This document shows, piece by piece, positions 8,250-63,804 of a DNA stretch of 64,000 nucleotides. Source of the stretch: Eisenibacter elegans DSM 3317 (GTDB taxonomy: Bacteria > Bacteroidota > Bacteroidia > Cytophagales > Microscillaceae). The notes beneath the pieces were generated by a model. The model saw only the letters and a program-made list of their open reading frames with translations. It was not told the DNA's origin and did no database searches. How positions within the stretch are numbered: the stretch's first letter is position 1; each line of letters begins with the position of its first letter. The position numbers and the translations under genes are program-made. The stretch spans positions 64,001 to 128,000 of the forward strand of contig NZ_AUMD01000021.1 in the NCBI RefSeq assembly GCF_000430505.1. Reading direction: 5' to 3'.

Positions 8250-8303
8250 ATCTCTGAAAATCAGTGATATTTTACTTGGAAAGTAGATGCGCTCAAAACC
8301 ATT

Positions 8304-8358
8304 GAGCCTCAAGAAAATCAAATCCAGCAAACCCGCCAATCAGGTAAATCTTGGGATA
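8304..8358 (+). repeat. Family-A intergenic repeat, partial copy (second half).
   Basis: The sequence gagcctcaagaaaatcaaatc...aatcaggtaaatcttgggatat matches the consensus tccttgagaatcaagaaaatcaaatctt.tgaatcttggtataa. Confidence 0.5.
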
Positions 8359-11317: not shown

Positions 11318-12004
11318 ATGCAGATGCCCATGGAGGAAAACTCTTGGTTGTATATGGAGCTGAACAAGGTGTCGCCACACTATCTCGACATCTTGTGGGC
11401 AGATGGATGGCGGCATTTTGGCAGCTTTTTTTTCCGGGATAAGTTTGGGTTTCATCGCGGTCAGAAAGTCCCTATCTTGCCGCTGCGTATCAATCTCCAC
11501 AAGTTCCGTTTTTCTAAGAGCCAACAAAAGCTGCTCAAACGACAAGCCGCCAGCGAAGTACTGATACGGACAGCACATATTGATGACGCTAAATACGAAA
11601 TGTTTTTCAAACACATTCATCGGTTTGAAGACAATGTCCCCGATTCTATCCACGATTTCTTGGGCCAAGACCCCTCACAAATCCCAGCCCCGATGTTGGA
11701 GTGTTGTTTGTTGAGGGAAGGGCGGATGTATGCAGTCAGCTTTTTTGATAAGGGCAACAAGGCCAGCTCTAGTGTATACGCTATGTTTGACCCGGCCTAT
11801 GGCCAGCTCAGCCCCGGCTTACACACACTCTTGGCCGAGATAGAGTTTTCCCTTGCCCATCAAATGGATTATGTCTACCTAGGGTATGCGTACCGTGAGT
11901 CTTCACATTATGACTACAAAAAACGCTTCTATGGCCTAGAATTTTATGACTGGAATGGCAAATGGCACGATTATCCACGCCTTACTGGAGAAGATGAAGC
12001 ATAA
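11318..12004 (+). CDS. bpt: Arginyl-tRNA--protein transferase family (bacterial Bpt, Asp/Glu leucyltransferase-like).
   Basis: It is 228 aa with an N-terminal ATE_N-like segment (WRHFG, FFRD) and a C-terminal YLGY...YK..F motif. Confidence 0.55.
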   Translation: MQMPMEENSWLYMELNKVSPHYLDILWADGWRHFGSFFFRDKFGFHRGQKVPILPLRINLHKFRFSKSQQKLLKRQAASEVLIRTAHIDDAKYEMFFKHIHRFEDNVPDSIHDFLGQDPSQIPAPMLECCLLREGRMYAVSFFDKGNKASSSVYAMFDPAYGQLSPGLHTLLAEIEFSLAHQMDYVYLGYAYRESSHYDYKKRFYGLEFYDWNGKWHDYPRLTGEDEA

Positions 12005-12008
12005 TAGG

Positions 12009-12106
12009 CCCAATCAAAACTGGTTTGGGAAATGTATTTGAAAATCCTTGAGACCCAAGAAAATTAACCCTTACAAACCCTCAAATCAAGTGAATCTTGG
12101 TATAAA
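12009..12106 (+). repeat. Family-A intergenic repeat, full copy.
   Basis: The sequence is cccaatcaaaactggtttgggaaatgtatttgaaaatccttgagacccaagaaaatt...caaatcaagtgaatcttggtataaaa. It begins 4 bp after the bpt stop. Confidence 0.7.
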
Positions 12107-12189
12107 ATCTAGGCAAAAGCTTGGATAGTTCATTAGAACTCTGTAATATTGCAATCGCTTTTGGAAACACCTGATTTTCGAAAGCCTCC

Positions 12190-14544: not shown

Positions 14545-14657
14545 ATTGGCTCATTTATATCAAGACGCACGAGATTTAAGGATGTACAGGGTTTGATTTT
14601 CTTGATTATCAAGGATTTTCAGCACACATATTTCCCAAACCAATTGTGGTTGAGTAT
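14545..14657 (-). repeat. Family-A intergenic repeat, full copy in reverse orientation.
   Basis: The sequence is ttatatcaagacgcacgagattt...gattttcttgattatcaaggattttc...atttcccaaaccaattgtggttgagtata. It starts 15 bp after the trpG stop. Confidence 0.7.
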
Positions 14658-14685
14658 AAAAAAACCCACGGGTGAAGCCGTGGGT
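14658..14685 (-). terminator. Putative terminator for the minus-strand genes.
   Basis: The hairpin is cccacgg gtgaagc ccgtggg preceded by A7 on the plus strand, which gives a T7 tail on the minus strand. Confidence 0.5.
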
Positions 14686-16181: not shown

Positions 16182-17249
16182 CTTGACATAACTGCCAAGA
16201 CAGCGTATATTGGCTGCGTAGCGTGTCAGAATATCTTTTAAGTTGTCTTGCTCGGCGTGGCCGTCGATTTCGATATAAAAACGAGAGTTGAATTTATGTT
16301 GTTCACGCGCCGGGCGGCTTTCAATTTTACTAAGATTGATGCGTGCCTTGTCAAACTCACTCAAGAAAGAGGCTAGGCTGCCGGGTTGGTCGGGGAGCTG
16401 GGCGACAATGGTAGTTTTATCTTGACCACTAGGTTGGTTGTTGAAATCCTTACTAAGAATCAAAAACCGTGTACGATTGTTGGGGCTATCTTCGATGTTA
16501 TAAAACAAGATAGGCAGCTGATAGAGCTTAGCGCCGATGGCAGCACAGATTGCGGCGCTGTTGTCGCGTTCCATAGCGAGTTGAGCGGCTTTTGAGGTTG
16601 ATTCTACTGGCACCAGCTCTGCGTTGGCCTGAGGGAAATACTCTTCCAAAAACTTCTGGCATTGCAAAAAACCTTGGTCTTTGGAGAAGATATAACGAAT
16701 GTCTTTAAGGTTGTCGTAGCGGCTGGCAAAAGTATGATGTATGGGCAGCAAAATTTCAGCAACAATTTTGACATCGTGCTCCATGAGTGCATCAAGGCTT
16801 TCAGCGACTACACCAGCCTGGTTGTTTTCTATCGGGATGACACCAAAGCGAACCCTTTCTGTAACGACATTCTCAAAAACAGATTTAATAGAAGGTAAGG
16901 GTAGATATTGGCTCATTACGCCAAAGCGGCTTTCGGCGGCCTGGTGTGTGTAGCTGCCTTCAGGGCCAAGATAGGCTACTTTTTCGGGCAGTTCTAGGTT
17001 GCGGCTGGCGGCAAATATTTCTAAAAATACTGCTTCGATGGCCGCACGGTTGAGGGGCGCGTTGGCTGTAAGCTTACCGCTCAGGCGGTCGATAATGTCT
17101 TTTTCGCGCTCAGGACGATAGATAATGGCGTTATTGGTGCGTTTTAGTTCGCCTACTTGGCGAACTACCTCCATCCGTTGGTTGAGTAACTCTACCAATT
17201 GATCATCTATCTGGTCTATGGTTTGGCGTAGGGCTTCGAGCGTTTTCAT
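16173..17249 (-). CDS. pheA: Bifunctional chorismate mutase / prephenate dehydratase.
   Basis: The N-terminal chorismate mutase region reads MKTLEALRQTIDQIDDQLVELLNQRM. The prephenate dehydratase domain (VAYLGPEGSYTHQAA, TRF) and a C-terminal ACT domain follow. The ORF extends to 17351; the start was chosen at MKTLE. Confidence 0.85.
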   Translation of the reverse strand: MKTLEALRQTIDQIDDQLVELLNQRMEVVRQVGELKRTNNAIIYRPEREKDIIDRLSGKLTANAPLNRAAIEAVFLEIFAASRNLELPEKVAYLGPEGSYTHQAAESRFGVMSQYLPLPSIKSVFENVVTERVRFGVIPIENNQAGVVAESLDALMEHDVKIVAEILLPIHHTFASRYDNLKDIRYIFSKDQGFLQCQKFLEEYFPQANAELVPVESTSKAAQLAMERDNSAAICAAIGAKLYQLPILFYNIEDSPNNRTRFLILSKDFNNQPSGQDKTTIVAQLPDQPGSLASFLSEFDKARINLSKIESRPAREQHKFNSRFYIEIDGHAEQDNLKDILTRYAANIRCLGSYVKLC

Positions 17250-17515
17250 TAGCTTCTCTCTATCAAATATTTGGCTACAAATTGCTTCAAAGTAAGACTT
17301 ACCCAAAGGCAAGCGCAACAAAGTGTAGCAAAAAACGAGGGCGTGATTCAAATTAACCGTCGTGTTTGTGCTAATACAAGTAACAATGGTACTTTATAGA
17401 GTTTTGCTTGTCAGGTTCATTTACCAAAAGCAAGAGCATAGCGGACGGAAGTTGAACGAAAAAGTGTAGCTTTGTTGTTGATTAATGATTGTTTACCCAC
17501 AAACTATTAATAACT

Positions 17516-21734: not shown

Positions 21735-21735
21735 A

Positions 21736-21839
21736 TTACACCAAGATTTACAAGATTTGACAATTGACAGGCTTTGATTTTCTTGATTCTCAAGGACTCT
21801 AGGCGCACATATTTCCCAAACCAGTTTTGGTTGGGTATA
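21736..21839 (-). repeat. Family-A intergenic repeat, full copy in reverse orientation.
   Basis: The sequence is ttacaccaagatttacaagatttg...gattttcttgattctcaaggactct...atttcccaaaccagttttggttgggtata. It starts 2 bp after the LRR gene stop. Confidence 0.7.
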
Positions 21840-21929
21840 GTAATGCTCAATTGTTAGCTGTGCTAAGTAGTTGACTATTAATTTCTTGAAAATAAGAATA
21901 AGGGAGGTTGTTTTTTGCATTCTCCCTAA

Positions 21930-26825: not shown

Positions 26826-26919
26826 TTATACCAAATTTAAGGATTCAAAGTATTTTATTCTCTTGATTATCAAGGAGTTTTAGTAATACATTTCCCAAAC
26901 TAATCTGGATTGGCTATAT
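26826..26919 (-). repeat. Family-A intergenic repeat, full copy in reverse orientation.
   Basis: The sequence is ttataccaaatttaaggattcaaag...attctcttgattatcaaggagtttt...catttcccaaactaatctggattggctatat. It starts 10 bp after the stop of the upstream gene. Confidence 0.65.
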
Positions 26920-27814: not shown

Positions 27815-27933
27815 ATGAAGCAGGGCTTGTTATACCCAAGGTTTATTTGGCTTGAGGGTTCACTAGTTTTGATTTTCAGACCATATATCTCCCCAGCTGA
27901 TTTTGACCGGATATACCAAACACCTGCCTCTCC

Positions 27934-30608: not shown

Positions 30609-30650
30609 TTCCATTGTAGTAATTAGATTTATGTTTGATAAAAGCTGCTC

Positions 30651-30720
30651 ATACCCAATCAAAAACAGTTTGGGAAGTGTGTGTGCTGGAAATTATTTCG
30701 CATCTAGCAAATCAAAGCTA
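30651..30720 (+). repeat. Family-A intergenic repeat, degenerate copy.
   Basis: The first half, atacccaatcaaaaacagtttgggaagtgt, is clear. The second half has diverged. Confidence 0.45.
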
Positions 30721-30745
30721 GCGCATTTCTACTGCTGACAACAGG

Positions 30746-43254: not shown

Positions 43255-43459
43255 AGACTTGAAAACAATGCTAGGGGTGATGCTCAATAGCTCATCTGCC
43301 ACCAGAATCGTACCATTCCCGCTGACAGAAGTCAAAACCTGCATCAGCCTGAAAGATTGGCAGGCTTGAGACTGACGCAGGCGCGGGGGTATAAAAGATG
43401 TTTATGCTACTAGATATTTTTGGAAAGATAGCCCCTACCGCGAATTAACACTGTAGGTG

Positions 43460-43591
43460 CGCCACTGGACATTGTTGGAAAAGTAGCTCGGAGCTAGAGA
43501 TCCGAGACAAGCCGAGGCCTCATTTTTTTTGGGGATAAGATAAGACTTAGCCCACAGTTTTAACTGTGGGTTTGAAAAATGTCCAGCGGCG
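43460..43591 (+). mobile_element. Family-B MITE-like element, copy 1 (132 bp), with terminal inverted repeats.
   Basis: The left end cgccactggacatt and the right end (reverse complement) cgccgctggacatt match at 13 of 14 positions. Inside are the hairpin ctcgga...tccgag, a gaggcctc palindrome followed by T8, and the palindrome cccacagttttaactgtggg. Confidence 0.6.
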
Positions 43592-43674
43592 TAGGCAATA
43601 AGCAAAGCCACTCCAAAATTGGAATGGCTCGTATAGGAAAACCTTTGAGTTACTCAAAAGCAGCTTGCTTGGGA

Positions 43675-45510
43675 CTAGAAAGCGTATTTACCTTCGGCAA
43701 TCAGGCGGTCGGCAATCTGACGACGTAGGGCTTTGGCATTGATTGGGTTCAGCTCAGTATATTGGCGTAAGGCGGCTAGGGCCTGGGCATAAGCTTCACC
43801 TTGAGCAATGGCGCTGAGCACCTCTTTGCCATTGAGGTAGACTTGGTCGGCGGCCTCTTGTAGATAAATTTTGGCCATCATCTCTTGGTATTGACAAGCC
43901 TCTGTACCGCGTTGTTGGATGAGTTTCTGGGTACGCAACACTACCGACTCGGCGGCGTACACCTCTACCAACATATTGGCTAGGCTGATAAGCAGCTCTT
44001 GCTCGTCTTTGATGGCTTCTCCGACGTGCTGGACGGTATGGCCTATCATGAGCAACAGCGCTTTTTTGAGTTGTTTGGTGGCAGCCTCCTCATAGCTTAG
44101 CGCAGTGCCATCAGTTTGGCGTGGGGCGATACCTTGGCGTACTTCGGCTTGCACAGCCTTGATGGCGCTCATCAGGTCAAGCTCACCTTTGAGGCCGCGC
44201 TTGAGGATGGTACTGATTGCGAGAATGCGGTTGATCTCGTTGGTACCTTCAAAAATACGGTTGATGCGTGCATCGCGGTAGCAGCGGTCTGCCGGAGCGT
44301 CAGCAGAGTAGCCCATTCCACCAAAAACCTGTACGGTCTCGTCTACGCAATAGTCCAATACTTCAGAGCCGTGAACTTTCATCAGGGCACACTCGATGGC
44401 AAATTGCTCGAAACTTTTGAGCTTGGCTTCGGCCTCTTCCATCCCTTGGGCTTGGAAAGCCTCGATGCAGTCGTCTATATTTTGCCCGGCGCGGTATACA
44501 GCCGATTCGCTGGCGTAGATACGCACGGCCTGCTCTGCCAGTTTGTGTTTGATAGCACCGAAGTTGGCAATGGCCGTCCCAAATTGTTTACGTTCGTTGG
44601 CATAACGAATGGCGTGGTTGAGGGCTGCGCGTGCACCACCAACATTAGAAGCCCCTAGCTTGATGCGCCCAATATTGAGGATGTTGACGGCAATCTTGAA
44701 GCCATTGCCGCGCTCCGAAAGTAGGTTTTCGACCGGCACGTGGCAGTCGTTGAAAAAAACTTGGCGTGTGTCAGAGCCTTTGATGCCCATTTTGTGCTCG
44801 GGGGCGTTCATCGTGATGCCACCAAAGTCTTTTTCTACAATAAAGGCCGACAGATTTTTGTCATCGTCTATTTTGGCAAATACAATAAACAAATCAGCAA
44901 AACCGGCATTGGTAATCCACATCTTCTGCCCATTTATGACATAGTGTTTGCCGTCGGCAGAGAGGGTTGCGCGTGTTTTGCCTGAGTTGGCATCCGAGCC
45001 AGAATCAGGCTCAGTGAGGCAGTAGCAGGCTTTGAGCTCGCCAGTGGCTAGTTTGGGCAAATACTTGGTTTTTTGGGCTTCGTTACCATAATACTGGATG
45101 GGGAGCGTGCCGATACCGGTATGTGCCGAGAAGGCCACCGTAAACGAATGACCGCCGCCAAGGTAGTCTGTTACCAACATTGTAGCGTTGAGGTTCATCC
45201 CAAAACCTTCGTATGCCTCAGGAACACCAGTGGCCAGAAGCCCCAGCTCGGCTGATTTGTCCAATAGCGAGGCCATCAGCTCGGGGCTTTCGGCCTTGTC
45301 AATTTTATCAAGGATAGGCAAAACCTCCTTATCCAACAAATCGAGACAAGACTGCGCTACCATCCGCTGCTCTTCGTCAAACTCTTCGGGGATAAATACC
45401 TGTGTCGCAGGAATATCTTTGACAAGAAATTCACCGCCTTTGACCAACTCTTTATTTTCTATTGCTTGCATATAGAGTAATGATTTTTTGTTTGGAATGA
45501 GGGTAGGCAA
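43675..45510 (-). CDS. Acyl-CoA dehydrogenase, long form with a C-terminal extension.
   Basis: This 611-aa protein has ACAD N, M and C1 domains (CLTEPDSGSD, GGMGY). MQAIENKEL (45471) is an alternative start. Confidence 0.85.
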   Translation of the reverse strand: MPTLIPNKKSLLYMQAIENKELVKGGEFLVKDIPATQVFIPEEFDEEQRMVAQSCLDLLDKEVLPILDKIDKAESPELMASLLDKSAELGLLATGVPEAYEGFGMNLNATMLVTDYLGGGHSFTVAFSAHTGIGTLPIQYYGNEAQKTKYLPKLATGELKACYCLTEPDSGSDANSGKTRATLSADGKHYVINGQKMWITNAGFADLFIVFAKIDDDKNLSAFIVEKDFGGITMNAPEHKMGIKGSDTRQVFFNDCHVPVENLLSERGNGFKIAVNILNIGRIKLGASNVGGARAALNHAIRYANERKQFGTAIANFGAIKHKLAEQAVRIYASESAVYRAGQNIDDCIEAFQAQGMEEAEAKLKSFEQFAIECALMKVHGSEVLDYCVDETVQVFGGMGYSADAPADRCYRDARINRIFEGTNEINRILAISTILKRGLKGELDLMSAIKAVQAEVRQGIAPRQTDGTALSYEEAATKQLKKALLLMIGHTVQHVGEAIKDEQELLISLANMLVEVYAAESVVLRTQKLIQQRGTEACQYQEMMAKIYLQEAADQVYLNGKEVLSAIAQGEAYAQALAALRQYTELNPINAKALRRQIADRLIAEGKYAF

Positions 45511-45628
45511 ATATACAAAAAATATGGTATGCGTGCATACTATATCCTTGATTTGTTAGACTGGCTGTATATCCAAATTGTTTGTGTGTTATGGGGGAGG
45601 TAGTTTGGAAGTAACACCTAGTCAGCAT

Positions 45629-45706
45629 TAGTTTGGGTAATGTACGCTGAAAATCCCTGAAAATCAAATCTATCCAATCCTTTAATGATTTGAATCTTGG
45701 TATTGA
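45629..45706 (+). repeat. Family-A intergenic repeat, partial copy.
   Basis: The sequence is tagtttgggtaatgtacgctgaaaatccctgaaaatcaaatc...gatttgaatcttggtattga. It ends 12 bp before the aat stop. Confidence 0.55.
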
Positions 45707-46419: not shown

Positions 46420-46518
46420 AGTAATCGTTTGGTGTAACAGAGCCAATAACCCTACCACGGAACTATTATGGCAAGCCTATGGTCGAGATTGAGGCTTATA
46501 TTGGCAAAAATCCCTACT

Positions 46519-46547
46519 TTATACCGAATCAAAATTGGGTAATGTAT
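46519..46547 (+). repeat. Family-A intergenic repeat, 5' fragment.
   Basis: The sequence tataccgaatcaaaattgggtaatgtatg matches the first 30 bp of the consensus. Confidence 0.4.
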
Positions 46548-46584
46548 GTTCTGACAATCACAGAGAGAGGTCGTATACAGGTTG

Positions 46585-51330: not shown

Positions 51331-51425
51331 TGTTTGGAAGAGCATTCAGAAAAACTACCCAAAGTAGCCTAAGAGGGGTGTCTTTGTGCGGATATCGCCA
51401 TTGTACTGCTTCGGGAATGGGCAAG

Positions 51426-51496
51426 TTATACCAAGATTCACAAGATTTGGAAATTTACAGGAGCTGATTTCCCAAACCAATTGTAGTCGGGTATAT
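51426..51496 (-). repeat. Family-A intergenic repeat, short copy in reverse orientation.
   Basis: The sequence is ttataccaagattcacaagatttgg...gatttcccaaaccaattgtagtcgggtatat. The central palindrome is missing. Confidence 0.6.
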
Positions 51497-51510
51497 TTAT
51501 TGAAAAGCTA

Positions 51511-51613
51511 CACACCACTGGACATTTTCAAATCCCACAGTTAAAACTGTGGGTTAAGTCTCATTGTACCCCAAAATGAAACCTCAGCTTTTCCAAAAAT
51601 GCCCAGTGGTGTG
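51511..51613 (-). mobile_element. Family-B MITE-like element, copy 2 (103 bp), with TIRs and a putative 9-bp target-site duplication.
   Basis: The left end cacaccactggacatt and the right end (reverse complement) cacaccactgggcatt match at 15 of 16 positions. The flanks gaaaagcta (51502-51510) and gaaaggcta (51614-51622) look like a target-site duplication. The interior carries cccacagttaaaactgtggg in the opposite order to copy 1. Confidence 0.6.
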
Positions 51614-51619
51614 GAAAGG

Positions 51620-52708
51620 CTACATTTTTTCGTAAATGGCGCGAATATCTTCTCTTTTGAGTTTCTGTTCCCAATCGAGACCGATGGCGTGATTCCACAT
51701 ATGTTTGAGTGCCCAGGTTACGTCAATCATCTGTTCGATTTGGGCATCTGTCCAGTCTTTGGCAAGATTTTGAGGGATGTGGATATTATTTTTGGCCACC
51801 ATCTGGTTAAACTCTTCGACTCCCTGAGGGTAGTAGTCGCCAAGGTGGGGGAAGATGATGCAGTTGGCGATGCAGTGGCGCGTTCCGAATACAAAAGACA
51901 GCCCATAAGAAAGAGCGTGGCACACACCCACCTCTGAGTAGGTCAGGCTAAGTCCGCCCATATATGAGGCGACCATCAGTTTTTCGTTGTTGATTGGTGT
52001 TTGGCCAAAGCCATCGCGGAGATATACATCTTGGCAGAGGTCGATAGACTTATAGCCGTAGGCTTCGCTAAAGGTGTTTTTGTAGTGTCCGTTCATTGAT
52101 TCTACACAGTGGATATAGGTATCCATTCCGGTATAGAACCATTGGTTTCGGGGGACATCGGCGATGAGCTCGGGGTCAAGCACGATTTGGTCAAACACCG
52201 TCCAGTCGCATTTGAGGCCGAGTTTTTTCTCAGGCCCAGTCAGTACGGCAGTCATCGATACCTCTGCGCCAGTACCCGAGATAGTGGGTACACCTACGTG
52301 GTATACGCCTGGTTTTTGGATAAGATTTAGCCCTTGGTATTTGGTAGAGGAGCCTTCGTTGGTGAGCATCAGGGCAACAGCCTTGGCGATGTCCATCACG
52401 CTACCGCCACCAATTCCGATTACGCCGGCGGGCAAGCCCTTGGTCTGTAGGATATGGTCGCGGAGCTGGTCTACTTGCTCAGTGGTAGGCTCGTGGTCGT
52501 CTACATCCACAAACAGGAGCATGTCGTGGGCGTGGGCGGGCACGCGCTGCGCGAGAGGCTTGTCTTTGAAGTAGTTGTCTACCAAGAAAATCATTGGGGC
52601 TTCGGGTGTAGGGCGTTTGGCAGCCAAGATATCGTCGAGTTGGTTGAAGCTACCGGCTCCGAAGACGGTCTTATCAACGCTTTTAAAATTTTTCCAAGTA
52701 TTTGTCAT
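51620..52708 (-). CDS. Iron-containing (group III) alcohol dehydrogenase family protein, KdnB-like.
   Basis: It has GIGGGSVMDIAKAVA (GGGSxxDxAK) and CHALSYGLSFVFGTRHCIANCIIFPHL, matching the Fe-ADH metal-site region. Length is 362 aa. Confidence 0.8.
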   Translation of the reverse strand: MTNTWKNFKSVDKTVFGAGSFNQLDDILAAKRPTPEAPMIFLVDNYFKDKPLAQRVPAHAHDMLLFVDVDDHEPTTEQVDQLRDHILQTKGLPAGVIGIGGGSVMDIAKAVALMLTNEGSSTKYQGLNLIQKPGVYHVGVPTISGTGAEVSMTAVLTGPEKKLGLKCDWTVFDQIVLDPELIADVPRNQWFYTGMDTYIHCVESMNGHYKNTFSEAYGYKSIDLCQDVYLRDGFGQTPINNEKLMVASYMGGLSLTYSEVGVCHALSYGLSFVFGTRHCIANCIIFPHLGDYYPQGVEEFNQMVAKNNIHIPQNLAKDWTDAQIEQMIDVTWALKHMWNHAIGLDWEQKLKREDIRAIYEKM

Positions 52709-52776
52709 ATTGTGTGTGGAAGCGTTTGGGTGGTAAGGAGTATAAACGTTGGGGGGCTACACAGGCGTAAGCGGCT

Positions 52777-52855
52777 TAGTGATGCGCCAGCAGTACCCCG
52801 CAGCGAAGCGAGGAGTACAGCGGCGCAGCACGACCCCGAAGGGGGAAGCCCCAAA
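52777..52855 (-). repeat. Family-C conserved intergenic element, copy 1.
   Basis: The sequence cagcagtaccccgcagcgaagcgaggagtacagcggcgcagcacgaccccgaagggggaagccccaaa is about 80% identical to 58365-58436. On the minus strand it forms a C(UUCG)G-type GC hairpin. Confidence 0.5.
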
Positions 52856-52895
52856 CCTAGGGTCTCCCTCCGGCAGTGAGGTTTTAAACAAGTGC

Positions 52896-54098
52896 TTAGG
52901 CCAAGGCTTCGCGCAAGACAGCGGTGAGCTGTTGGGTAAAGGCTTTCAGCTCGTCTTCGGTCCAAGTAACGCGCACGACCATAGAGAGCAAACGGCGCAT
53001 GACCTCATCTGTTTTGGGGAGATTGAGGTGGATGGTGCGGTAGTCTTGTGGCAGCTCATCGAGGGTTTGGGCGTGTACTTTGGCGATGGTTTTCATCTCG
53101 CGGAGGTGCTCCCAGTTTTTGATGTAGTGGAAGTTGTTGTCATACCAATATTGCACTCCGATACTGGCCTTTTGGAAGGCTTGTTGTACTTTGCGGGTGG
53201 TGGCTTCGTCGGGCAAGAAGAAGTCGATAAAGGTAGCGGCATCACCGGCAGGGTCGGGGATGTGTCGGAAGCTGATTTGGGGGAACTGTGCCAGACAGTC
53301 GTGCAGTATTTTTTTGTGTTTGCGTTGCTGTTCGATGATGTAGGGCAGCTTTCGGGCTTGGGCTAGGCCTACGGCGGCGTTGAGCTCGCCCATGCGGTAG
53401 TTGAACCCTACGATGGGGTGTTGCTCGGCGCCACGGTTGTCGCCGATGTGGTCGTGGCCGTGGTCAGAGTATTGGTGGGCATAATCGTATAAGACGGGGT
53501 CGTTGGTGATGACCGCTCCACCTTCGCCGGCAGTGATGATCTTGAAGAAATCAAAAGAGAAGCAGCCCATTTTGCCAAACAAGCCTACGTGTTTGCCCTT
53601 GTAGGTAGCGCCCAGAGCCTGAGCCGAATCTTCGATGAGCAGGAGGTTGTGCTCTTCACAGATGGCCATAATCTCATCGAGGCGTGCCATAGAGCCACAC
53701 ATATGCACCAGCACGACGGCCTTGGTGCGTGGGGTAAGGGCGGCACGGATGCCTTCGGGGCTGAGGCAGAGGGTCTCGTCGATTTCGGCAAACACAGGGA
53801 CTGCCCCGCCGAGGAGTGCGCCTTCTACCGTGGCGATGTAAGTGAAGGGCGGGACAATAACCTCGTCGCCGGCACCAATACCACAGCAAGCCATTGCAAT
53901 GGCTACGGCAGTAGAGCCGCTGGTGCAGGTATGGGCGTATTTGGCTCCCGTAAATTTGGCCAGCTCAGCCTCAAATTCTTTGGCCTTCCAATGGCCGTTG
54001 CGGAGGTTGTCGTGGTTGTATCGGAAAAGAATGCCCGTTTCGAGCACATCGTTTACTTCTTTACGCTCTTCAGCGCCGAATAATTCTGAACCCGGCAT
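52896..54098 (-). CDS. DegT/DnrJ/EryC1/StrS-family PLP-dependent aminotransferase, KdnA-like.
   Basis: It is a 400-aa fold-type I aminotransferase of the sugar-aminotransferase class, with an active-site Lys region (FSFDFFKIITAGEGGAV) and an N-terminal E.EAV.EVL-type motif. Confidence 0.8.
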   Translation of the reverse strand: MPGSELFGAEERKEVNDVLETGILFRYNHDNLRNGHWKAKEFEAELAKFTGAKYAHTCTSGSTAVAIAMACCGIGAGDEVIVPPFTYIATVEGALLGGAVPVFAEIDETLCLSPEGIRAALTPRTKAVVLVHMCGSMARLDEIMAICEEHNLLLIEDSAQALGATYKGKHVGLFGKMGCFSFDFFKIITAGEGGAVITNDPVLYDYAHQYSDHGHDHIGDNRGAEQHPIVGFNYRMGELNAAVGLAQARKLPYIIEQQRKHKKILHDCLAQFPQISFRHIPDPAGDAATFIDFFLPDEATTRKVQQAFQKASIGVQYWYDNNFHYIKNWEHLREMKTIAKVHAQTLDELPQDYRTIHLNLPKTDEVMRRLLSMVVRVTWTEDELKAFTQQLTAVLREALA

Positions 54099-56875: not shown

Positions 56876-56960
56876 CACACCACTGGACATTTTTGGAAAA
56901 GTAGCTCGGAGTTCTAGCTCCGAGACAAATTAAGACCTCATTAATCACATAGTTTTGTTT
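56876..56960 (+). mobile_element. Family-B element, partial copy 3 (left TIR plus internal hairpin, no right TIR).
   Basis: The sequence cacaccactggacatttttggaaaagtagctcggagttctagctccgagacaaattaagacctcat aligns to copy 1 at 43460-43525. Confidence 0.5.
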
Positions 56961-56987
56961 GGGGAAAGCCACGCCTGAGGAGCCTAT

Positions 56988-58325: not shown

Positions 58326-58364
58326 CTTAGCGCGAGAGCGCAAAGTATGCGGGTGTAGCCCACG

Positions 58365-58436
58365 AGCAGTACCCCACAGCACAAAGTGCGAGGAGTATGG
58401 CCGTCCAACCCGACCCCGAAGGGGGAAGTCCCAAAA
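58365..58436 (-). repeat. Family-C conserved intergenic element, copy 2.
   Basis: The sequence gagcagtaccccacagcacaaagtgcgaggagtatggccgtccaacccgaccccgaagggggaagtcccaaa lies 40 nt upstream of the vWA-like gene start. Confidence 0.5.
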
Positions 58437-58497
58437 AGAAAATCTGGTGTGTGTCATCGGTTTTTTGCTTTCAGTACTTTGTTGCGGTGCGTGTTTT

Positions 58498-58583
58498 ATA
58501 CCCAATCAAAATTGGTTTGGGAGATATATCTGTTGAAAATCCTTGGGAATCAAGAAAATCAAATCTTATGAATTTTGGTATAA
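58498..58583 (+). repeat. Family-A repeat, full copy overlapping the 3' end of murI.
   Basis: The sequence is atacccaatcaaaattggtttgggagatatat...gaaaatccttgggaatcaagaaaatcaaatcttatgaattttggtataa. The last 8 murI codons plus its stop are encoded inside the element. Confidence 0.7.
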
Positions 58584-59413
58584 CCCAAGGGGTCTAAGTC
58601 TACCGACTGTATGCTAGGAACGTGGCCTAGGGGCAATAATTGCCATTGTTCCAAAAAAAGGGCAAGCCCCTGGGCGCTCCCTGTAGTCAAGAACCGGTAT
58701 TGCGGGAGTGTTGTTGAGGAGGTGGCCAGATTTTGGGTGTGGAGGCATTGTTGCGTTCGCTTGGCGACCGCCCCGGCGGGGTCGATGATTTGTACGGGCT
58801 GAGTGCCGATGATACGCTCCAAGAGAGGCATCAGGAAGGGGTAATGTGTACAGCCCAAAACCAACTGATCGATGCCGGCGGCCAACATCGGCTCGACATA
58901 GCGGCGGAGCAAGGCTTCGGCCTCGGGTGTGTGGAGGTGGCCTTGTTCTACGATTTCGACCAGGCCTTCGCCTACTTGGGTATGGACGGTGATATGCTGA
59001 GCATAAGCTTGCAGGGTTTGGTGGAAGTGCCGCCCTTTCAGCGTGCCGGCGGTGGCCAACACCCCAATATGACCGCTACGGGTTTGGAGGGCAGCAGGCT
59101 TGACCGCCGGCTCCATCCCCACAAACTGTACCTGTGGGTATTGCTGCCGCAAGGCCGTAATGGCCGCCGCCGTAGCCGTGTTGCAAGCTACTACAATGAG
59201 CTTGGCTCCCTGTGAGAGTAGGGTTTCGGTCAGCTGCCGGGAGAGTTGTACAATCTCTTCAGCCGGGCGTGTGCCATAGGGGCAGTGGGCACTATCGGCC
59301 ATATAGATAAAAGACTCTTGGGGCAATAGGGCGGCTAAATGTCGCCAAACCGACAGCCCGCCCAACCCTGAATCAAACACCCCAATGGGGCCTTGTGAAT
59401 GAAGCATCTCCAT
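58559..59413 (-). CDS. murI: Glutamate racemase.
   Basis: It has VFDSGLGGLSV and IVVACNTA and is 284 aa. Confidence 0.9.
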   Translation of the reverse strand: MEMLHSQGPIGVFDSGLGGLSVWRHLAALLPQESFIYMADSAHCPYGTRPAEEIVQLSRQLTETLLSQGAKLIVVACNTATAAAITALRQQYPQVQFVGMEPAVKPAALQTRSGHIGVLATAGTLKGRHFHQTLQAYAQHITVHTQVGEGLVEIVEQGHLHTPEAEALLRRYVEPMLAAGIDQLVLGCTHYPFLMPLLERIIGTQPVQIIDPAGAVAKRTQQCLHTQNLATSSTTLPQYRFLTTGSAQGLALFLEQWQLLPLGHVPSIQSVDLDPLGYTKIHKI

Positions 59414-62520: not shown

Positions 62521-63543
62521 ATGAAAGTCTTTGTGCGGTTTATACTCAGCCTCCTGCTCGTCGGGATGCTGTCTGTTACTACTTTTTATTTTTGGGGAAG
62601 CGCCGGCAAGCTTTCAGAGGCCGAATTGACCCAGACTTATGTGTTGCCCAATGCACAAACACCCACCCAAAGCGACAGTCTGGTATTGGTCTCTTTCAAT
62701 ATTGGCTACCTTGCAGGGATGACCAACAACTTGCCACTTCCTCGTACTCAGGCTTTTGTAGATAGCAATATGCTGCACGTAAAGTCGATATTCAAGCACT
62801 TAAAGCCTGATGTGGTGGGGTATCAGGAGATAGATTATGGCGGTCGGAGGGCTTTTGATAACAACCAATCAGAGGTAATCGCCACACGGCTAGGCTTTGG
62901 CTACCGTGCCGACGCAGTCAATTGGGATAAAAACTATGTACCCTTCCCCTATGCGGTCAATCCGGCCTTGCATTTTGGCAGGGTGCTTTCCGGGCAAAGT
63001 GTACACAGTCGTTACCCGATTTTGTCACACAAGCGCATTGCTTTGCAGAAGGTCAAAAATGCACCCTTTTACTACAATGCCTTCTACCTTGACCGTTTGG
63101 CACAGGTAGTAGAGCTTCAATATGGGCGAGATACGCTGGTGTTGATTAATGTACACCTAGAGGCGTTTGACGGCCCTGCTCGCGAAGCTCAGACGGAAGA
63201 GTTGTTGAACATCTACCGCAGCTATCGCCCAGAGCAGCGTCCGGTGTTGCTCATCGGAGACTTCAATAGCAACGCGCCCACGGAAGCCTATCGACAAAGC
63301 GCTGACTATGAGAGAGTAATAGACCTTATCTTGGCAGAGCCTACATTGGCCTCGGCCTGTGTGCCGGAGCTTTTCAGCCAGCGCGAACAATGCACATACC
63401 CTGCCGATAAGCCGGATGTACACATTGACTATATTTTTTATAACCCAAAATTTTGGGAGCTGCGCCAATACCGGGTATTAAACGAAATGCAAACCGCCTC
63501 CGATCACCTACCCATTATGGCCATACTCAAACGCCTCCGGTAA
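62521..63543 (+). CDS. Endonuclease/exonuclease/phosphatase (EEP) family protein, membrane-anchored.
   Basis: It has an N-terminal TM helix and the EEP motifs VVGYQEID, LIGDFNS and SDHLPIMA. Confidence 0.8.
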   Translation: MKVFVRFILSLLLVGMLSVTTFYFWGSAGKLSEAELTQTYVLPNAQTPTQSDSLVLVSFNIGYLAGMTNNLPLPRTQAFVDSNMLHVKSIFKHLKPDVVGYQEIDYGGRRAFDNNQSEVIATRLGFGYRADAVNWDKNYVPFPYAVNPALHFGRVLSGQSVHSRYPILSHKRIALQKVKNAPFYYNAFYLDRLAQVVELQYGRDTLVLINVHLEAFDGPAREAQTEELLNIYRSYRPEQRPVLLIGDFNSNAPTEAYRQSADYERVIDLILAEPTLASACVPELFSQREQCTYPADKPDVHIDYIFYNPKFWELRQYRVLNEMQTASDHLPIMAILKRLR

Positions 63544-63548
63544 TTTTT

Positions 63549-63634
63549 ATACCTACCCAAAATTGGATTGGGAAATCTACGCATGGAGAATCCTTGATAA
63601 TCAAGGAAATCAAATCTTGTGAATCTTGGTATAA
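63549..63634 (+). repeat. Family-A intergenic repeat, full copy.
   Basis: The sequence is atacctacccaaaattggattgggaaatctacgcatggagaatccttgataatcaaggaaatcaaatcttgtgaatcttggtataa. It starts 6 bp after the EEP gene stop. Confidence 0.7.
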
Positions 63635-63804
63635 TAACCGGCATCGATGTCAAGAGGTATTGGAGAGTATCACAGGGTATTTTACCACACAAGCCGCATA
63701 TACGGGATAAAAGTCTGGGTTTTTTGTAATATTTTTGTATCATGCGAAGTATACCCCACTAGACAGTCATTGCATTGGACACAGCCCCAACCGACGAACA
63801 TTTG

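Follow-up and report, generated by a model that had tools for sequence, protein, structure and literature searches.

The stretch of DNA analysed here, referred to throughout as the window, comprises 64,000 nucleotides of the Eisenibacter elegans DSM 3317 genome and is occupied by housekeeping genes, with no transposase gene and no RAYT gene among them. Its gene content and an exact protein match point to E. elegans, and a cyanobacterial origin, considered at first, was rejected on these grounds and because the sequence has no HIP1 site. Scattered between these genes are copies of a non-coding repeat of 100-135 bp with inverted ends of 18-19 bp, designated family B (Table 1). All three copies that the initial annotation had described were found in their places, and all of them, as it had also noted, are intergenic and adjoin gene ends. 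With respect to the genes beside them, both orientations are represented. Copy 1 has on one side the stop of a FadE-type acyl-CoA dehydrogenase gene (43675, minus strand) and on the other the start of prs, the gene for ribose-phosphate diphosphokinase (43344, minus strand). Copy 2 occupies a convergent spacer between the genes for RNase Y (stop 51254) and an Fe-ADH/Kdo-8-oxidase-like protein (stop codon 51620-51622), ending 6 nt from the ADH stop codon, and copy 3 lies in the convergent spacer past the stop of a DUF2339 gene (56825). The Fe-ADH gene adjoining copy 2 (51620-52708, minus strand) bears the JGI name 3-deoxy-alpha-D-manno-octulosonate 8-oxidase and itself adjoins a DegT-type aminotransferase gene (52896-54098, minus strand); such a pairing of oxidase and DegT-type aminotransferase serves to make 8-amino-Kdo in lipopolysaccharide.

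Family B shares the window with other repeats. The second and much denser one, family A, is about 90-117 nt long, has the ends TTATACC...GGTATAA and two internal hairpins, and is present in 12 copies within the 64 kb, all intergenic. One of its copies stops 14 bp short of the left edge of family B copy 2, and short-read contigs break inside family A as well (contig L002 ends at 51449). A third, GC-rich repeat (GCGAGGAGTA...GACCCCGAAGGGGGAAGCCCCAAA) was found at 52808-52855 and 58388-58435 with 83% identity, embedded in a wider similarity at about 52760-52860 and 58345-58440; each copy lies in an intergenic spacer upstream of a minus-strand gene, and neither has an Rfam match at the gathering score.

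Table 1. Coordinates of family B copies, their parts and family A copies (window positions unless a contig is named)
Feature	Position	Strand	Remarks
Copy 1	43458..43593	+	complete, 136 bp; nhmmer E=2.7e-42
Copy 1 left TIR	43458..43476	+	TGCGCCACTGGACATTGTT; 16/19 match to reverse complement of 43575-43593
Copy 1 right TIR	43575..43593	+	AAAAATGTCCAGCGGCGTA
Copy 1 hairpin 1	43487..43506	+	CTCGGA-gctagaga-TCCGAG, GTAG just before
Copy 1 hairpin 2	43551..43570	+	palindrome CCCACAGTTTTAACTGTGGG
Possible decayed left-end fragment	43404..43434	+	ATGCTACTAGATATTTTTGGAAAGATAGC; 24 bp left of copy 1
Copy 2	51511..51613	-	complete, 103 bp; nhmmer E=8.5e-29
Copy 2 hairpin 2 (palindrome)	51534..51553		TTAAAA at centre
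Copy 2 putative target-site duplication, left	51502..51510		GAAAAGCTA; 8/9 match to 51614-51622
Copy 2 putative target-site duplication, right	51614..51622		GAAAGGCTA; minus strand TAGCCTTTC
Copy 3	56876..56962 (right edge approximate)	+	truncated, about 87 bp; nhmmer E=1.4e-24
Copy 4	L241 20130-20254		second strain; nhmmer E=1e-26
Copy 5 (diverged)	L241 ~17130-17262		second strain; E=3e-4
CACCACTGGACATTTT matches	43460 (+), 43576 (-), 51513 (+), 51596 (-), 56878 (+)		two mismatches or fewer each
Family A copies	8276-8358, 11997-12113, 14551-14668, 21735-21848		
Family A copies	26830-26918, 27833-27924, 30650-30728, 45614-45703		
Family A copies	46518-46559, 51423-51496, 58489-58597, 63539-63642		

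Anatomy of the element

A full family B element is bounded by two inverted ends of 18-19 bp. Between them lie, from left to right, an optional GC-rich hairpin (hairpin 1), a spacer rich in T and a palindrome of 20 bp (hairpin 2). The consensus of the ends is CACACCACTGGRCATTTTT, and the element as a whole is 53-60% AT. The core of the inverted end, CACCACTGGACATTTT, has five matches at two mismatches or fewer in the 64-kb window against 0.57 expected and a maximum of 2 among shuffles, plus one stray match at three mismatches. A profile built from the three copies recovers each of them at E-values of 1e-24 to 1e-42 (nhmmer, 64-kb window), and it has no other significant match there. The probability that these copies resemble one another by chance or low complexity, lacking a common origin, is virtually nil: beyond the small copy number, which is all that speaks for it, such an account would have to accommodate these E-values, pairwise identities of 81-84% over 63-70 nt, motif counts that no shuffle reached, and a fourth copy outside the window.

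The element has no coding capacity, with stops in five of the six frames and complete copies of just 103-136 bp, inside the range of about 50-600 bp that is usual for bacterial MITEs, and its single open frame has no match in a set of 5.8 billion protein sequences. The right inverted end of copy 1 holds an outward-facing ATG (AAAATGTCCAG...), at which a spurious 49-aa ORF has been called (contig L086, 18982-19131, equivalent to window 43575-43724 on the plus strand). ORFs starting in right inverted ends may recur at other copies and inflate counts of hypothetical proteins; a search with the translated open frame of family B for spurious ORFs called on other copies yielded no candidates. At the RNA level, Rfam 15 at the gathering score reports one tRNA in the whole window and no match to family B, and a permissive search around copies 1 and 2 returned noise only (E=0.47 or worse). 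A reading of the inverted end as a sigma-54-like promoter or a Bacteroidetes -7 box was set aside on inspection by eye, as the spacing does not fit.

Alignment of the copies to one another revises several details. When aligned to copy 2, copy 1 extends over 43458-43593 rather than the 43460-43591 given initially, while the bounds of copy 2 (51511-51613) are unchanged. The inverted ends are longer than the roughly 14 bp first proposed, and the degenerate sequence with which all three copies were said to begin fails for copy 1, which starts with TGCGCCACTGG. That each complete copy ends in the inverted partner of its start is borne out, at 17 of 18 positions in copy 2 and 16 of 19 in copy 1. Copy 1 is the most diverged of the three window copies; its inverted ends carry several transitions, and its flanks, CACTGTAGG and GGCAATAAG, show no target duplication. 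To its left lies a stretch, 43404-43434, that could be a decayed left end, with 79-83% identity and differences from the consensus that are mostly transitions; its nhmmer E-value of 0.27 is non-significant alone, and it was not accepted as a family member.

The internal modules are collinear. The palindrome CCCACAGTTTTAACTGTGGG recurs in copies 1 and 2 as described earlier, with 0 occurrences expected. Of the proposed terminator-like module, the hairpin GGAAAAGTAGCTCGGAG holds up in copies 1 and 3, whereas the run of eight T that was said to complete it is private to copy 1 and not conserved. The modules had been thought to stand in different order and orientation in copies 1 and 2, a pattern attributed to recombination between elements. 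Reverse-complemented, copy 2 matches copy 1 end to end with a single 28-bp gap; it is simply inverted and short of hairpin 1, so the inference of recombination rested on a misread strand. The segment absent from copy 2 (TAGCTCGGAG...GAGACAAG), flanked by AAG on both sides, is the optional module of 28 bp in which hairpin 1 of copy 1 sits. Since hairpin 1 is present in copies 1, 3 and 4 and in the diverged copy 5, the gap is a deletion in copy 2 and not the product of inter-element exchange, and copy 2 has lost its hairpin 1 by deletion between the AAG...AAG microhomologies.

Copy 3 is partial, as had been noted. It retains the left inverted end, hairpin 1 (56905-56924) and the spacer, and is truncated near 56962, so that it has neither the palindrome nor the right end.

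Putative target duplication at copy 2

At copy 2, the near-perfect 9-bp direct repeat pointed out initially (GAAAAGCTA and GAAAGGCTA) is confirmed at eight of nine positions and abuts both ends of the element exactly. A match of at least 8/9 at this spacing occurs at 2.3e-4 of window positions, determined empirically. The right-hand 9-mer, read on the minus strand (TAGCCTTTC), is the native ADH stop codon plus 6 nt, and the C-terminus of the encoded protein (...YEKM*) is the conserved end of its family. Insertion would therefore have copied the stop codon while leaving the ADH gene intact. The 9-mer belongs to the target DNA and not to the element, because the sequences to the left of copies 1, 3 and 4 bear no relation to it.

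Clean duplication is seen in one of the three complete copies. It is 9 bp long; the TA or 3-bp duplications typical of the IS630/Tc1, IS5 and PIF groups were not seen. Insertion sequences that make duplications of 8-10 bp include those of the IS4, IS1, IS256 and ISAs1 families and the IS5/IS903 group.

Copies beyond the window

A second E. elegans strain, located through exact-protein look-ups, is represented by JGI sample 3300044941 and Logan run SRR35364711 and is 99.7-99.8% identical to the window. Walking 20 kb past the right edge of the window on its contig Ga0484952_000149 (L241) uncovered two more copies, the first of which has the same end as the window copies, which bears out the recurrence at other loci on which the initial annotation had made its reading depend. 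Copy 4 begins 1 nt past the stop codon of a PAS-domain gene. Of its ends, one is canonical (CACACCACTGGACAC) and the other rearranged or variant (CACACCCTGCCGGGCATT), and the centre of its palindrome is deleted. Its flanks match at 0 of 9 positions in register; a match at 7 of 9 is obtained only with the rearranged end shifted by 2 nt and is ambiguous. Copy 5 carries a CTGCC variant at both ends. These end variants suggest subfamilies, and possibly a chimeric copy.

Family B accordingly has a density of about five copies in about 84 kb, three in the window and two in the next 20 kb of the second strain, from which a copy number for the whole genome can be given only as an extrapolation. Logan contigs of the window's own strain end inside copy 3 (56885-56905) and copy 2 (51550), and the window contains no repeat longer than 20 nt of those segments. 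The simplest reading of these breaks is that additional and more similar family B copies exist elsewhere in the E. elegans genome.

Searches outside the species recovered no copy of family B. A 22-mer spanning the end and its subterminal bases, which has three matches in the window, has none in genome and metagenome contig collections, from both of which the source species is apparently absent, and none in viral sequences. The shorter 16-mer end motif gives at least 120 single matches in metagenomes and 17 in viral sequences, all chance-like. No inverted pair of the end motif occurs in 2.5 Mb of fetched loci or in plasmids, and a blastn comparison of copy 1 with plasmids gave no match. One apparent inverted-repeat pair in metagenomes (L120/L193; 455 bp apart, one mismatch) was discarded, as it falls inside the coding sequences of guanylate kinase (gmk) and ribosomal protein L19 (rplS). 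Families A and B are both absent from 80 Cytophagales/Sphingobacteriales loci and from the contigs of the nearest relatives (77-80% ADH identity), and the closest RNase Y among 185,579 species genomes is 74-76% identical. Gene order is not conserved in these nearest relatives, so they offer no comparable site at which an empty target could be sought. The three window copies occupy identical sites in the two E. elegans strains, whose comparison thus shows neither an empty site nor recent movement.

Folding and decay

Complete copies fold as long hairpins closed by the inverted ends, with z-scores of -6.1 to -8.8 as RNA and -4.5 to -6.5 as DNA. Copy 1 forms such a whole-element hairpin at -56.5 kcal/mol as RNA (z=-6.3) and -24.9 kcal/mol as DNA (z=-4.5), and the minus strand of copy 2 reaches -51.2 kcal/mol (z=-8.8). 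The truncated copy 3 forms no whole-element hairpin (z about 0). Within the elements, the two internal hairpins are 89% paired across the five copies. Four base pairs have changed on both sides, all in copy 5, a number that 8 of 500 shuffles reach; three of these compensatory changes fall in hairpin 1. This is a modest sign that the internal stems matter to the element.

Comparison of the two strains offers a view of how the element changes. At the centre of the copy 2 palindrome the window strain has TTAAAA and the second strain TTTTAA, an exact inversion of the loop (51543-51544; contigs L086 and L087), and the strains differ in addition by a 1-bp indel in a C run at 51568. Copy 2 has therefore undergone two mutational events in 103 bp, against a background divergence of 0.24%. 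Taken together, the loss of hairpin 1, the loss of the palindrome centre and the inversion of the loop point to hairpin-driven mutation and not to a conserved host function.

This pattern bears directly on the proposal that the copies are structured modules retained by the host at gene 3' ends, acting as terminators, stabilisers or RNase targets, perhaps once mobile and now kept by selection for RNA structure. Much about their placement invites it. All copies sit just downstream of genes, the same sites are fixed in both strains, and copies 2 and 4, which start 6 nt and 1 nt past a stop codon with no other terminator between, are the first stem-loop after it; the folds of the elements are strong (z=-6 to -9) and the hairpins show the compensatory changes described above. 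Against it, the elements stand in both orientations relative to the upstream gene, copy 3 is truncated and unfolded, and each of hairpin 1, the palindrome centre and the T run can be missing from a copy. The two events in copy 2 are the opposite of constraint, FadE and RNase Y have terminator-like hairpins of their own outside the family B elements, and no orthologous element exists in relatives. Retention by the host is on balance unlikely as the explanation of the family; individual copies may have a host RNA function, which is not needed to explain family B.

Origin of family B

Family B is probably a family of non-autonomous DNA transposons (MITEs) of E. elegans. The anatomy of the element, the 9-bp duplication at copy 2, the occurrence in both orientations, the derivatives with truncations and deletions and the restriction to one lineage all agree with a bacterial MITE that a DDE transposase mobilises in trans. 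The core of the initial annotation, that the copies are non-autonomous DNA transposons, is the best-supported explanation, while its rearranged modules and its recombination between elements have fallen away. The anatomy and the single duplication are observed directly; the transposase and the mechanism we infer. One observation sits poorly with a DDE transposase: hairpin pairing has been kept through four double substitutions, which an enzyme that reads only the ends would not require.

In the corresponding scheme, a DDE-type transposase encoded elsewhere in the genome would bind both family B ends, and its 9-bp staggered cut at insertion would duplicate the target, as at copy 2. After insertion the copies have decayed, mostly at their own hairpins, as seen in hairpin 1 and the loop of copy 2, the palindrome centre of copy 4 and the right half of copy 3. 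Copies would persist where insertion is harmless, in spacers just past stop codons, and those that are transcribed would give the neighbouring mRNA a long stem-loop at its 3' end, which may affect termination or RNA stability.

The internal hairpins raise the alternative that the elements are REP/REPIN-like or derived from IS200/IS605, and were moved as single-stranded hairpins by a Y1 transposase of the RAYT type that reads the internal hairpins and not the inverted ends. Each half of the element has a subterminal hairpin, compensatory changes preserve its pairing, and the whole element folds as a long hairpin, as REPINs do (PMC3116915). Nevertheless, the arms, at 18-19 nt, are not palindromic, and the two hairpins are unrelated in sequence and so do not constitute a REP doublet. 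In copies 1 and 3, GTAG stands before hairpin 1, recalling the GTAG-tagged REPs (PMC3733652), but ATAT and TAAA take its place in copies 4 and 5. Elements derived from IS200/IS605 lack inverted ends and a duplication and insert beside a fixed tetra- or pentanucleotide; family B has strong inverted ends, and no conserved tetranucleotide stands beside them (TAGG, TTTC, CGCT and AGTC are found). Copy 2 is without hairpin 1, yet has its two ends and a flanking duplication of 9 bp, a feature that Y1 transposition does not produce. Movement by a hairpin-reading Y1 enzyme is on these grounds distinctly unlikely.

A further point in favour of the same alternative comes from viral sequences. The palindrome CCCACAGTTTTAACTGTGGG of copy 1 (window 43551-43570) matches a hairpin just downstream of tnpB genes in six viral or proviral loci (IMG/VR contigs L234-L239). 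It is identical there to the right-end hairpin of the tnpB (IS605 OrfB) elements, and two permuted control palindromes found no match; against this, the resemblance is confined to the 20-21 nt hairpin. A 9-bp stem with a 2-nt loop has 11 free positions, which makes one such coincidence plausible in a large database, and the identity is probably coincidental.

The broader possibility that embraces these proposals, namely that family B consists of hairpin-dependent modules, mobile or host-retained, whose internal stem-loops, preserved by compensatory substitutions, are functional through Y1/TnpB-type recognition, which the tnpB palindrome would suit, or through a 3'-end RNA role, stands at best a slim chance. 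Were it true, family B would form with family A a REPIN-like ecosystem of structured repeats, of which no report was found in Cytophagales.

Family B has most likely not been described before, its sequence being new and its kind ordinary. A literature search with the end sequence retrieved unrelated primers only, E. elegans was found named in a single taxonomy paper, and very few accounts of small non-autonomous transposons were found for free-living Bacteroidota. With at least two dense families of small elements, amounting to some 15 copies in 64 kb of core housekeeping DNA, the E. elegans genome illustrates how such repeats break short-read assemblies, seed spurious calls of small ORFs and put strong stem-loops right after stop codons. 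For annotation and assembly, family B is useful bookkeeping; it would be a routine addition to the MITE catalogue unless its parent transposase or a role at the RNA level should turn out to be unusual.

Comparison with known systems

Several groups of small bacterial repeats resemble family B in form. The Correia/NEMIS elements of Neisseria and the ERIC/RU elements of enterobacteria are intergenic repeats of 100-160 bp with inverted ends that form long hairpins when transcribed, are often co-transcribed with neighbouring genes and occur as length variants produced by internal deletion. Correia elements have, in addition, a TA duplication, IHF sites and promoters. Measured against these, family B is alike in its size, inverted ends, long hairpin and internal-deletion variants; it has no sequence similarity to Correia and belongs to a different phylum. 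Reviews on such repeats are PMC3184786 and PMC2229807.

REPINs are REP doublets mobilised by RAYT tyrosine transposases, about 100 bp long, extragenic, present in many copies and vertically persistent (PMC3116915). They share with family B the layout of two inverted arms and a spacer and the hairpins formed in single-stranded DNA or RNA, but their arms are palindromic REPs and they make no target duplication, whereas the arms of family B are non-palindromic and copy 2 has its 9-bp duplication. In QMITE2 of Coxiella burnetii, the direct repeats measure 7-9 bp, the inverted ends 23-29 bp and the core 113-145 bp (PMC10969869). Its core folds as a very stable hairpin; it is larger than family B, unrelated in sequence and resident in a different host phylum. 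The nearest taxon (Bacteroidota/Cytophagales) with a described MITE that was found is Cardinium, a Cytophagales-related endosymbiont, whose MITECca01 is about 240 bp long and derives from the IS982-family element ISCca4 (PMC9769881). Like family B it is confined to its lineage, and sister strains have no copies of it; its ends are matched by those of a resident insertion sequence, and in sequence it shows no similarity to family B.

In form, the nearest counterpart so far described is MITEAba12 of Acinetobacter, which measures 113 bp, has ends of 16 bp and retains its 9-bp duplication in only 40% of copies; it is mobilised by ISAba12 of the IS5 family, and both the identity of this parent insertion sequence and transposition itself have been established (PMC6382973). 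The two are unrelated in the sequence of their ends (GGCTTTGTTGCACAAA in MITEAba12 and CACACCACTGGRCATTTT in family B) and show no similarity elsewhere, and MITEAba12, at 78% AT, has no strong internal hairpins, whereas family B, at its lower AT content, has two. What they have in common is their size class, imperfect ends, a 9-bp duplication, putative in family B, the absence of coding sequence, and insertion in intergenic DNA or at gene ends.
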